Positions 1 through 3,458 of a DNA stretch of 3,458 bases are shown piece by piece (position 1 is the first letter of the stretch; each line of letters opens with the position of its first letter). The DNA comes from Escherichia phage BZ13. The notes below the pieces were generated by a model that worked only from the letters and a program-made list of their open reading frames with translations, did no database searches and was not told the DNA's origin. The position numbers were made by a program, and so were the translations under genes. Location of the stretch: the sequence record FJ483839.1, one strand, 5' to 3'.

Positions 1-128
1 GGGTGGGACCCCTTTCGGGGTCCTGCTCAACTTCCTGTCGAGCTAATGCCATTTTTTTAATGTCTTTAGCGAGACGCTACCATGCCGTTAGGTTTAGATG
101 ACGGTATATTCCATATACCGGAGGATCT
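1..128 (+). promoter_or_regulatory. 5' untranslated leader of the ssRNA phage genome (replication and translation-control region)
   Basis: Window starts GGGTGGGACCCCTTTCGGGGTCC..., which matches my recollection of the conserved 5' end of MS2/GA-type phage RNAs. No convincing gene starts before the maturation ATG at 129. A CTTCCT element at 31-36 could pair with the maturation gene Shine-Dalgarno. Confidence 0.85.
5..24 (+). promoter_or_regulatory. 5'-terminal stem-loop
   Basis: Seen directly: GGACCCC (6-12) is the exact reverse complement of GGGGTCC (17-23), with a 4-nt loop TTTC (13-16) and a possible G5-U24 wobble. A stable GC-rich hairpin at the extreme 5' end is characteristic of this phage family. 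Confidence 0.75.
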
Positions 129-1301
129 ATGTTTCCGAAGTCAAATATCGACAGAAATTACAAGGTTAAACTTATTTCTTACGACAAGAAGGGGAATCTT
201 GTTTCCGACGACTCTTTTGAGCAAGTCGAAAACTATCTCTTTCAAAACCGTTCGAATACGTATAAACCTGGATATATTCGTCGCGACTTTCGAAGACCAA
301 CTAACTTTTGGAACGGCTATCGCTGTTTCAATCAGCCAGTTGGTACCTTCACTCGGAAACTCTCTGATGGTGGGAGACAAGTTGCTGATTATGGCATTGT
401 GAACCCTAATAAGTTCACTGCCAACAGTCAGCACTTGGGGGACAACATGGTAATTTACCCTGGTCCCTTCTCTATAAATATTGATCAGCGTGCTTCTGTC
501 GAAGTCCTCAATAAGCTTTCACAGTCGAACCTCAATATTGGGGTTGCGATTGCTGAGGCTAAGATGACTGCTTCATTACTCGCTAAGCAATCTATAGCTC
601 TCATCAGAGCCTACACTGCTGCAAAGCGCGGTAATTGGCGAGAGGTGTTTTCTCAACTCCTCATCTCCGAACACCGTTTCAGAGCTCCTGCTAAGGATCT
701 CGGAGGTCGATGGCTCGAACTGCAGTACGGTTGGTTACCCCTTATGAGTGATTTGAAAGCTGCATATGATTTGCTCACGCAAACCAAACTGCCTGCTTTC
801 ATGCCCTTGAGGGTTACCCGCACCGTTGGCGGAACGCACAATTATAAAGTGCGCAACGTCGAATCTGCAGGGGATACTTGGTCCTATAGCGATCGTTTGT
901 CGGTGAATTACCGAATATGGTATTTCATTTCCGACCCGCGACTCGCATGGGCTAGTTCCCTTGGGCTTCTTAACCCTTTGGAAATCTACTGGGAAAAGAC
1001 GCCCTGGTCGTTCGTTGTTGACTGGTTCTTACCTGTCGGTAATCTTATAGAAGCCATGAGTAATCCTCTTGGCCTCGACATTATTTCCGGCACGAAGACC
1101 TGGCAACTTGAATCAAAACTTAACGCGACGCTTCCGGCTCCGGGTTGGTCTGGAACTGCAAAGTTGACTGCATATGCGAAAGCGTATGACAGATCGACTT
1201 TCTATTCCTTCCCCACCCCGTTGCCGTACGTGAAATCTCCACTTAGTGGGCTTCACCTAGCGAATGCGTTAGCCTTAATCAACCAACGCCTGAAAAGGTA
1301 A
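129..1301 (+). CDS. mat: Maturation (A) protein, 390 aa: pilus-binding and RNA-binding virion protein
   Basis: 390-aa ORF with GGAGG (120-124) upstream of the ATG at 129. The translation has blocks I recognise from the MS2 A protein: RGNWR, GRWLELQ(Y/F)[29 protein letters not shown], and a C-terminal ALALI-QRL. Position (first gene) and length fit the family. Confidence 0.93.
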
Positions 1302-1317
1302 TTACGGAGTTAGCCAT

Positions 1318-1710
1318 ATGGCAACTTTACGCAGTTTCGTACTCGTCGATAATGGCGGTACGGGGAATGTTACTGTCGTTCCTGTTAGCAATGCCAACGG
1401 CGTCGCTGAGTGGCTTTCTAATAACTCACGCAGTCAAGCTTATCGCGTGACTGCCAGTTATCGTGCGTCAGGCGCGGACAAGCGCAAATACACCATTAAA
1501 CTTGAAGTACCGAAAATCGTTACTCAAGTTGTAAATGGAGTTGAGCTGCCTGTTTCCGCATGGAAGGCTTACGCCTCTATCGACCTGACCATCCCTATCT
1601 TTGCTGCAACCGATGATGTGACCGTTATTTCCAAGTCACTCGCTGGCCTGTTCAAAGTTGGGGACCCTATCGCCGACGCTATCTCTTCTCAGAGTGGCTT
1701 CTACGCGTAA
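1318..1710 (+). CDS. cp: Coat (capsid) protein, 130 aa including the initiator Met
   Basis: ORF preceded by GGAG at 1306-1309, 8 nt before the ATG at 1318. Protein begins MATLRSFVLVDNGGTGNVTVVP... and contains NGVAEWLSNNSRSQAY and LTIPIFA, which matches my recollection of GA-type coat protein and is clearly homologous to MS2 coat (FVLVDNGGTG, NGVAEW, SRSQAY, ELTIPIF). Stop TAA at 1708-1710. Confidence 0.95.
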   Translation: MATLRSFVLVDNGGTGNVTVVPVSNANGVAEWLSNNSRSQAYRVTASYRASGADKRKYTIKLEVPKIVTQVVNGVELPVSAWKAYASIDLTIPIFAATDDVTVISKSLAGLFKVGDPIADAISSQSGFYA

Positions 1711-1901
1711 TGGGTCTGAAAGCAAAACATAAGGAAAACCTATGTTCCGATTCACAGAGATCGAAAAGACTCTATGTATGGATCGCACTCGCGATTGTGC
1801 TGTCCGATTTCACGTCTATCTTCAGTCATTGGATTTGGGGTCTTCTGATCCTCATTCTCCGGACTTTGATGGACTTGCCTACCTTCGTGATGAATGTTTA
1901 A
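1710..1901 (+). CDS. lys: Lysis protein (L-type single-gene lysis protein), 63 aa
   Basis: ORF in a third frame whose ATG (1710-1712) overlaps the coat stop TAA (1708-1710) as TAATG, and which runs 160 nt into the replicase gene. Basic N-terminus (K, H, R rich) followed by a hydrophobic stretch LYVWIALAIVLSDFTSIFSHWIWGLLILIL. The AIVLSDF segment resembles MS2 L (AIFLSKF) and carries the conserved Leu-Ser dipeptide (codons at 1800-1805). Confidence 0.85.
   Translation: MGLKAKHKENLCSDSQRSKRLYVWIALAIVLSDFTSIFSHWIWGLLILILRTLMDLPTFVMNV
1726..1746 (+). promoter_or_regulatory. Coat-protein operator hairpin (translational operator of the replicase gene)
   Basis: Seen directly: AACAUA-A-GG-AAAA-CC-UAUGUU. 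Lower stem 1726-1731 pairs with 1741-1746, A1732 is unpaired (bulge), GG 1733-1734 pairs with CC 1739-1740, loop AAAA 1735-1738. The replicase ATG (1742-1744) lies in the 3' arm. Same architecture as the MS2 operator (ACAUG-A-GG-AUUA-CC-CAUGU). Confidence 0.9.
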
Positions 1902-3340
1902 CTAAACATCCCTCACTCGGAGACAGTAATTCGGACGCACGCCGTAAGGAATTGGCATATGCCAAACTTATGGATAGTGATCAAAGATGCAAAATCCAAA
2001 ACAGTAACGGATACGACTACTCTCATATCGAGAGTGGCGTACTGAGTGGTATACTCAAGACTGCTCAGGCCCTTGTGGCAAACTTGCTTACGGGTTTTGA
2101 ATCTCACTTCCTGAACGATTGTTCGTTCTCCAACGGAGCCTCACAAGGGTTCAAGTTGCGGGATGCAGCGCCGTTTAAGAAGATCGCTGGGCAAGCAACC
2201 GTTACAGCTCCTGCCTATGACATTGCCGTGGCCGCCGTTAAAACGTGCGCACCGTGGTATGCTTATATGCAGGAAACGTATGGCGATGAAACCAAATGGT
2301 TTCGTCGGGTGTACGGCAACGGTTTGTTTTCTGTTCCGAAGAACAATAAAATAGATCGGGCTGCCTGTAAGGAGCCTGATATGAATATGTACCTTCAGAA
2401 AGGGGCGGGATCTTTTATAAGAAAACGCCTTCGCTCCGTTGGTATAGATCTTAATGATCAAACGCGCAACCAGGAATTAGCCCGACTTGGCAGCATTGAT
2501 GGGTCGCTCGCTACTATTGATCTTAGTAGCGCTAGTGACTCCATCTCTGACCGTCTCGTCTGGGATTTACTTCCACCGCACGTCTATTCATACCTCGCTC
2601 GTATTCGCTCGTCTTTCACTATGATTGACGGGCGCTTACACAAGTGGGGTCTATTTTCTACCATGGGTAACGGCTTTACATTCGAACTCGAGTCCATGAT
2701 CTTTTGGGCCCTGAGTAAGAGCGTTATGCTGTCCATGGGTGTTACTGGCTCATTAGGCGTCTACGGTGACGATATAATCGTTCCTGTTGAATGTGCCCCG
2801 ACCCTCCTTAAGGTATTATCCGCTGTGAACTTTCTTCCGAATCAGAAGAAGACGTTTACGACGGGTTACTTTCGTGAGAGTTGCGGTGCTCATTTCTTTA
2901 AAGGCGCCGACATGAAACCTTTTTACTGCAAGCGGCCAATGGAAACCCTTCCCGATGTCATGTTGCTCTGCAACAGGATAAGGGGTTGGCAGACCGTTGG
3001 TGGAATGTCAGATCCGCGGCTCTTTCCGATTTGGAAGGAGTTTGCTGATATGATTCCGCCGAAGTTTAAGGGTGGATGTAACCTGGATCGCGATACTTAC
3101 CTCGTTTCACCTGATAAACCTGGTGTCACACTGGTTCGTATTGCTAAGGTACGCTCTGGTTTTAACCACGCGTTCCCGTACGGCTATGAAAACGGCCGTT
3201 ACGTCCATTGGCTACATATGGGATCGGGAGAAGTTCTCGAGACCATATCCTCCGCCAGGTTTAGGTGCAAACCTAACTCGGAATGGAGAACACAGATCCC
3301 TCTATTTCCTCAGGAATTAGAGGCCTGCGTTCTCTCCTGA
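1742..3340 (+). CDS. rep: RNA-directed RNA polymerase (replicase beta subunit), 532 aa
   Basis: Longest ORF, starting in the operator hairpin. Contains VPKNNKIDRAACKEPDMNMYLQKG, which matches my recollection of MS2 replicase, plus RdRp motifs: IDLSSASDSIS (motif A-like), STMGNGFTFELES (motif B-like), and YGDD at nt 2762-2773 (codons 341-344) as catalytic motif C. Ends with a tandem stop TGA-TAG (3338-3343). Confidence 0.96.
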   Translation: MFRFTEIEKTLCMDRTRDCAVRFHVYLQSLDLGSSDPHSPDFDGLAYLRDECLTKHPSLGDSNSDARRKELAYAKLMDSDQRCKIQNSNGYDYSHIESGVLSGILKTAQALVANLLTGFESHFLNDCSFSNGASQGFKLRDAAPFKKIAGQATVTAPAYDIAVAAVKTCAPWYAYMQETYGDETKWFRRVYGNGLFSVPKNNKIDRAACKEPDMNMYLQKGAGSFIRKRLRSVGIDLNDQTRNQELARLGSIDGSLATIDLSSASDSISDRLVWDLLPPHVYSYLARIRSSFTMIDGRLHKWGLFSTMGNGFTFELESMIFWALSKSVMLSMGVTGSLGVYGDDIIVPVECAPTLLKVLSAVNFLPNQKKTFTTGYFRESCGAHFFKGADMKPFYCKRPMETLPDVMLLCNRIRGWQTVGGMSDPRLFPIWKEFADMIPPKFKGGCNLDRDTYLVSPDKPGVTLVRIAKVRSGFNHAFPYGYENGRYVHWLHMGSGEVLETISSARFRCKPNSEWRTQIPLFPQELEACVLS

Positions 3341-3458
3341 TAGTATCAGGACCTCCCCGGACGGGGTGGGTGTGACCGAAAGGCCACTATGGAGGTGAAC
3401 CCTCCACCGCCCAAAAGGCGGTTCTCGGTGACTAGTTTGCTTGGCTAGTCACCACCCA
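3341..3458 (+). promoter_or_regulatory. 3' untranslated region with replicase-recognition structures and 3'-terminal CCCA
   Basis: No ORF after the replicase stop. GC-rich, self-complementary segments are visible (CCCCGGACGGGG at 3355-3366; GTGACCGAAAGGCCAC at 3372-3387 with a GAAA loop). The window ends ...CACCACCCA, as expected for this phage family. Confidence 0.85.
3429..3451 (+). promoter_or_regulatory. 3'-terminal stem-loop immediately before the terminal ACCACCCA
   Basis: Seen directly: TGACTAG (3429-3435) is the reverse complement of CTAGTCA (3445-3451), with a 9-nt loop TTTGCTTGG (3436-3444). Confidence 0.7.

Follow-up and report, generated by a model that had tools for sequence, protein, structure and literature searches.

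The sequence analyzed here, referred to as the window, is a stretch of 3,458 nt that constitutes the complete genome of an F-specific single-stranded RNA coliphage of group II (Emesvirus japonicum), GA-type. The list of its open reading frames (ORFs) contains four genes in the levivirus order of maturation, coat, lysis, and replicase:

129-1301, plus strand: maturation gene (ORF list; Pfam Phage_mat-A)
1318..1710, plus strand: coat gene, 130 aa, upstream ORF of the putative coupled pair (ORF list; Pfam Levi_coat, 130.4 bits)
1710..1901, plus strand: lysis gene, 63 aa, predicted single-gene lysis protein of the MS2 L type (ORF list; Pfam PF11125)
1742..3340, plus strand: replicase beta-subunit gene (ORF list; Pfam RNA_replicase_B, 731.5 bits)

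All four ORFs passed the gathering score of their Pfam family (Phage_mat-A, Levi_coat, Phage_MS2_lysis, and RNA_replicase_B). From position 1742 onward, the replicase gene overlaps the final 160 nt of the lysis gene in a different frame. We compared the window with GenBank phage records by megablast. Over positions 79 to 3458, it was 94.7% identical to GA (X03869 / NC_001426), 94.3% identical to BZ13 strain DL10, 85.6% identical to BZ13 strain T72, and 84.9% identical to KU1, all of which belong to Emesvirus japonicum (genogroup II). The window is collinear with GA, with the four ORFs at equivalent positions, and the coat gene is annotated at the equivalent position in the GA, DL10, T72, and KU1 records.

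Over its first 84 nt, the window resembles MS2 and not GA, a difference from GA that has no bearing on the coat-lysis junction. Positions 1 to 84 were 100% identical to nt 1 to 84 of JQ966307 (group I-JS strain DL52), and the 5' end was 97.6% identical to nt 1 to 82 of MS2. GA and KU1 showed no similarity to this end of the window before the shared ACCATG at positions 79 to 84. Judged from these alignments, the genome consists of a group II body preceded by a leader of group I, and the two meet in a microhomology of 6 nt (ACCATG). This end may have arisen by natural recombination, or it may be a chimera produced during PCR or assembly. DL52, DL10, DL20, and T72 were sequenced by one laboratory (PMC3499819). 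The chimeric leader was predicted to fold stably (z = -5.0).

Where the coat gene ends and the lysis gene begins, positions 1700 to 1720 of the window read TCTACGCGTAATGGGTCTGAA. The following elements lie in and around this segment:

1662..1717, plus strand: predicted irregular hairpin, comprising the final 47 nt of the coat gene and the initial 8 nt of the lysis gene
1692..1697, plus strand: GAGUGG, the sole Shine-Dalgarno (SD)-like element upstream of the lysis AUG (weak, 12-nt spacing, within a hairpin stem)
1708..1712, plus strand: UAAUG junction, with the coat stop UAA at 1708-1710, the lysis AUG at 1710-1712, and A1710 common to both
1726..1746, plus strand: predicted replicase operator hairpin (coat-protein binding site), in which 1726-1731 pairs with 1741-1746

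The stop-start geometry is a -1 overlap of the coat TAA and the lysis ATG. This overlap was the starting point of the sequence-only reading made before our analysis, and comparison with the sequence and the ORF list showed it to be real in every detail. The ATG at 1710 is the earliest ATG, GTG, or TTG in its frame past the preceding stop codon, whose last base is 1616. After it, the frame has no further codon of this kind until a GTG at codon 30, within the hydrophobic segment of the protein. A start there would lose half of the product, so no other start preserves the lysis protein.

The significance of the TAATG at the junction lies in its position and conservation, not in its frequency. It falls exactly on the coat stop and opens the PF11125-matching ORF, and the same junction is present in GA and DL10. 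The window and these two genomes share the sequence CGCGTAATGGGTC and have no 18-nt insertion of the kind found in other relatives (see below). Statistical enrichment of TAATG was considered and rejected, as both strands of the window together contain nine copies compared to 6.3 +/- 2.5 expected from shuffles.

The novelty that had been implied for the overlap did not hold up. In the 1986 GenBank record of GA, the coat gene is placed at 1325..1717 and the lysis gene at 1717..1908, with one base common to both. In addition, the -1 overlap is among the commonest coupled geometries in prokaryotes, according to PMC10666635. The UAAUG overlap is an already known, ordinary feature, annotated since 1986, and the GA junction is an experimental model. 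The GA record (X03869) labels the lysis gene 'aa 1-64', while 1717..1908 amounts to 63 residues plus the stop, a minor annotation slip.

The ORF that begins at 1710 matched PF11125 (Phage_MS2_lysis) with a score of 30.6 bits (cut-off, 25; E = 3.3e-07) over residues 6 to 53. Its product is identical to the GA lysis protein at 60 of 63 residues and to that of DL10 at 61 of 63. A homology search, which returned one cluster, gave 94% identity to the BZ13 lysis protein P0001. The L protein of MS2 has a basic N-terminal part, a hydrophobic C-terminal part, and a conserved Leu-Ser dipeptide. Judged by eye, the product encoded in the window has a basic N-terminus, a hydrophobic segment, and a Leu-Ser dipeptide (VLSDF), reading MGLKAKHKENLCSDSQRSKR... 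and then LYVWIALAIVLSDFTSIFSHWIWGLLILIL. These comparisons indicate that the 63-aa product is probably an MS2 L-type lysis protein, and lysis is also the annotated role of its near-identical counterparts in GA and BZ13. The ORF also occupies a position typical of the lysis gene in enterobacterial leviviruses (PMC3561173).

The sequence-only reading had found no good SD sequence upstream of the lysis start, only a weak GAGTGG about 12 nt away, and our calculations agree. The best duplex of GAGTGG with the 3' tail of 16S rRNA was predicted at -3.2 kcal/mol. Elsewhere in the window, the predicted SD pairing was -9.5 kcal/mol for the maturation gene, -6.1 kcal/mol for the coat gene, and -6.2 kcal/mol for the replicase gene, with spacers of 3 to 7 nt. 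GAGUGG was itself predicted to be paired, in the stem at 1691 to 1698. The search against the 16S 3' tail found no strong upstream rRNA complementarity of the tether type, -3.2 kcal/mol being the best value. On these computational grounds, the lysis start appears to be without a functional SD sequence.

We then folded the RNA around the junction. For the segment from 1655 to 1725, the minimum free energy and centroid structures coincided (-24.9 kcal/mol; z = -2.2), and a longer context gave the same fold. In the outer stem of the 1662 to 1717 hairpin, 1662-1667 pairs with 1712-1717, so that the G of the lysis AUG is predicted to be paired, and the UAAU lies within an internal loop. An inner hairpin was predicted at 1678 to 1698, with its loop at 1687 to 1690. 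Its counterpart in GA (GA 1683-1707) is annotated as 'pot. stem loop structure; pot. function in lysis gene control'. Opening the region from -18 to +12 around the start was predicted to cost 17.5 to 19 kcal/mol for the lysis gene, compared to 8 to 12.5 kcal/mol for the other three genes. The question had been raised of whether the lysis ATG is structurally masked. The predicted fold pairs its G, and the opening cost is about twice that of the other starts; the A and U of the start codon were predicted to be mostly unpaired. No compensatory base changes for the 1662 to 1717 hairpin were found in a MAFFT alignment of five group II genomes, in which the 18-nt insertion is placed differently. Because these five sequences offer no compensatory changes, the hairpin stays a thermodynamic prediction.

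One base of the outer stem, G1663, is specific to the window strain. GA, DL10, KU1, and T72 have an A at this position, and the change replaces a coat Asn by Asp. G1663 adds a predicted G1663-C1716 pair to the stem adjoining the lysis AUG, and this extra G-C pair in the modeled closing stem could alter the efficiency of coupling. Downstream of the junction, the operator hairpin contains the replicase AUG (1742) and is located inside the lysis ORF, 16 nt past the lysis AUG. It corresponds to GA 1733-1753, annotated as 'pot. binding site coat protein', and is invariant in all five group II genomes.

The same junction has been the subject of published experiments in GA. GA belongs to the same species as the window and shares with it the UAAUG, the 63-aa lysis ORF, the stem-loop upstream, and the operator hairpin downstream, with base-for-base identity from 1690 to 1754. 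It differs from the window at five positions within the final 70 nt of the coat gene (G1663, C1674, C1677, and U1689, plus T1644 farther upstream) and at three residues of the lysis protein. Of these substitutions, U1689 (A in GA), located in the hairpin loop, is the sole one that falls within 30 nt upstream of the start. According to the portion of PMC9955659 that summarizes Inokuchi et al. (2000, EMBO J 19:3788), the GA lysis gene has no SD and is read strictly by ribosomes that have translated the coat gene, and deletion and substitution analysis never yielded independent lysis expression. In lacZ reporters derived from GA, changing the upstream AUG to AUU abolished downstream reading (PMC9955659; Inokuchi et al. 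2023, PLoS One). With the junction altered to AUGA, replacement of its AUG by AUA likewise abolished downstream reading, indicating that the start triplet is required, and stop-start distances from -1 to +4 nt were about equally effective (PMC9955659). GA had been picked as a 'pure' model of reinitiation because it has essentially no SD (PMC9955659). The main proposal of the sequence-only reading was that ribosomes finishing at the coat UAA reinitiate locally to make the lysis protein. The GA experiments support it: the reporters demonstrated dependence on translation of the upstream ORF and a need for the AUG, and PMC9955659 argues that the downstream ORF is read by the very ribosome, or its 30S subunit, that terminated. 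The sequence of GA is the same as that of the window across the junction. The weak SD pairing and the roughly doubled opening cost that we calculated agree with the published coat dependence in GA. By analogy, we infer that the GA reporter results would transfer to the window strain.

Other coupled systems share some of these properties. MS2 and fr, both of group I, resemble the window in that their lysis proteins belong to the PF11125 family, the lysis ORF spans the gap between the coat and replicase genes in another frame, and expression depends on the coat gene. The contrast that had been drawn with the geometry of MS2 is borne out. MS2 begins L 50 nt before its coat stop, and fr begins it at a UUG 38 nt before the stop (PMC12548453), giving overlaps of 50 and 38 nt compared to a single base in the window. 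In these two phages, lysis translation is coat dependent, and a scanning model of reinitiation has been proposed for it (Berkhout et al. 1987; Adhin and van Duin 1990, both as reported in PMC12548453). Ribosomes must reach a start located behind the stop, or the start must be unmasked, whereas the window has a one-base overlap. The same geometry as in the window, with the same dependence of the downstream gene on the upstream gene, is found in prokaryotic -1 (UAAUG) and -4 (AUGA) coupling, as in trpB-trpA (PMC12548453; PMC10666635). Many cellular coupled pairs have an SD inside the upstream gene, whereas the window has essentially none. Termination-reinitiation is also known from eukaryotic viruses such as calicivirus and influenza B. 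The UAAUG reinitiation described for hypovirus CHV1 and structure-dependent cases in PMC2699510 and PMC11921876 involves the same pentanucleotide and the same re-use of the terminating ribosome. These viruses, however, employ another translation apparatus and upstream RNA tethering elements, whereas pairing with the 16S tail in the window reaches only the weak value given above.

The junction is not uniform among the relatives of the window. KU1, T72, and IMG/VR contigs L005, L006, and L008 contain an 18-nt insertion exactly between TAA and TG. Compared to the window, these KU1-type sequences have GGCGUAGUUCUUCAGCAU inserted between UAA and UG, and their lysis start is a UUG, 17 nt past the coat stop. 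They have the same gene order, operator hairpin, and homologous start position as the window, and the same lysis protein except for its first residues. In the predicted KU1-type fold, every base of the start is paired, and the insertion supplies part of the closing stem, which is longer. In the insertion variants L002 (1675-1745) and L004 (1585-1655), compared with positions 1664 to 1717 of the window, the predicted partner of the 3' half of the insertion (UUCAGCAU) is the coat sequence GGUUGCUGA. GA-type genomes have UAUCGCUGA at the coat codons facing the insertion, and their coat protein has Ile where the insertion variants have Val. In the modeled structures, the insertion and the Ile/Val substitution in the coat appear to go together, lengthening the stem over the lysis start.

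We also scanned a metagenome collection with the 15-base pattern CAGAGNGGNTTCTACGC. Among the matches listed, 119 of 120 were chance matches with no similarity to the window, and the sole relative listed was L031 (OGVH01001890.1, positions 370-400). The conservation of UAAUG at the population level is based on 10 sequences. L031 is a group II relative, 86% identical to the window, with a KU1-type 18-nt insertion. Its insertion ends in CAGTAATGGGTC, and its lysis start is AUG rather than UUG. This AUG overlaps a second TAA in the coat frame, 18 nt past the real coat stop. By its sequence, L031 resembles an evolutionary step linking the GA-type junction to the KU1 type. All three variants of the junction have retained a start codon, AUG or UUG, at the homologous position, and its retention across the 18-nt insertion fits a reinitiation process that tolerates short downstream distances.

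A more distant arrangement was seen in three environmental leviviruses from IMG/VR (L009, L010, and L011), whose coat protein is 56% identical to that of the window. Megablast of these three against GenBank phage records gave no match. In L011 (1649-1876), and also in L009 and L010, a 70-aa ORF opens with an ATG located 12 nt past the coat TAA. This ORF encodes an L-like hydrophobic segment with a Leu-Ser motif (LLAISLSKY) and is preceded by AGGAG, 1 nt before the ATG. The three genomes thereby show a further stop-start geometry (+12) for a gene that is probably a lysis gene of the same kind.

We consider it highly probable (about 0.9) that the lysis gene of the window lacks its own functional ribosome binding site and is translated by termination-reinitiation from the coat UAA to the overlapping AUG. 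According to this model, a ribosome translating the coat gene would melt the hairpin at the 3' end of that gene and halt on the UAA at 1708 to 1710. After release of the peptide, a fraction, as we infer, of the post-termination ribosomes would take initiator tRNA on the AUG at 1710 to 1712. The P site would shift 5 nt forward, into a new reading frame, and the 63-aa lysis protein would be produced. Free ribosomes would be shut out of the lysis start because it offers no usable SD and is folded when no ribosome passes. The output of lysis protein would be a small, fixed fraction of coat output, and lysis would therefore be delayed until much coat has been made. It seems reasonable to expect that the timing of lysis is tied to coat production. 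The route by which the post-termination ribosome arrives at the AUG, release and rebinding or scanning, is disputed. Inokuchi et al. (Kaji and Inokuchi group) favor release driven by RRF followed by rebinding (PMC9955659). Conversely, PMC7538156 reads the 2000 paper as coupling without dependence on recycling and finds that coupling in E. coli does not depend critically on recycling.

The coat ribosomes could instead do no more than open the 1662 to 1717 hairpin, leaving a fresh 30S subunit from the cytoplasm to initiate at 1710. Unfolding of this kind is the classical proposal for the MS2 lysis hairpin. The predicted pairing of the G of the AUG and the high opening cost would suit it, the GA record assigns the stem-loop a potential role in controlling lysis gene expression, and the model is considered plausible for MS2 with its -50 nt spacing (PMC12548453). 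At a -1 overlap, however, the geometry implies that the ribosome that opens the hairpin would occupy the start and block a second ribosome, and there is no usable SD for the recruitment of a free 30S. Moreover, none of the deletions or substitutions in GA gave coat-independent expression (PMC9955659). Removal of a mask should release expression, and since this did not occur in GA, masking alone is unlikely. We regard unfolding without reinitiation as improbable at this junction.

Even less credit can be given to independent initiation, in which free ribosomes would start at a low level on the SD-poor site via GAGUGG, S1, or standby binding, and the overlap would reflect genome compaction only. 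Many bacterial genes do start without a strong SD, GAGUGG forms a weak duplex with the 16S tail, and two of the three bases of the start codon were predicted to be mostly unpaired. Yet the GA reporters were silent downstream if the upstream ORF was untranslated (PMC9955659, Fig. 2), a spacing of 12 nt is past the usual functional range, and GAGUGG is buried inside a stem. It is scarcely credible that the overlap is a coincidence and that the 63 codons are silent or belong to something other than the lysis gene. TAATG is not over-represented in the window, and short ORFs arise by chance; this ORF, however, passes the gathering score of Phage_MS2_lysis, is 94 to 97% identical to the annotated GA and BZ13 lysis proteins, and displays the L-type layout of a basic N-terminus, a hydrophobic segment, and Leu-Ser. 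The start is also kept at the homologous position across the 18-nt insertion in KU1, T72, and L031, and the ORF lies where enterobacterial leviviruses usually have their lysis gene (PMC3561173).

Within the preferred reading of termination-reinitiation, the hairpin might have a further part, which we mention as an unlikely refinement. Beyond passively masking the start, the 1662 to 1717 structure, together with the weak GAGUGG, might refold behind the ribosome that has just terminated, or around it, and so retain it at the junction. G1663 would then tune the fraction of ribosomes that reinitiate and, hence, the timing of lysis. Bearing on this idea, the closing stem is kept, and is even longer, in the predicted folds of the KU1-type insertion variants. 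If true, a retaining hairpin would be a bacterial counterpart of the ribosome-retaining structures at eukaryotic viral reinitiation sites.

For more than 20 years, the GA junction has served as a clean system for studying the fate of the ribosome after termination, because its downstream ORF has no SD. The junction of the window adds nothing new to this picture; it indicates that a validated regulatory device is recoverable from sequence alone. Under termination-reinitiation from the coat UAA, it would be a textbook-grade case of dosage control in a 3.5-kb RNA phage, with the toxic lysis protein produced solely as a side product of making coat.
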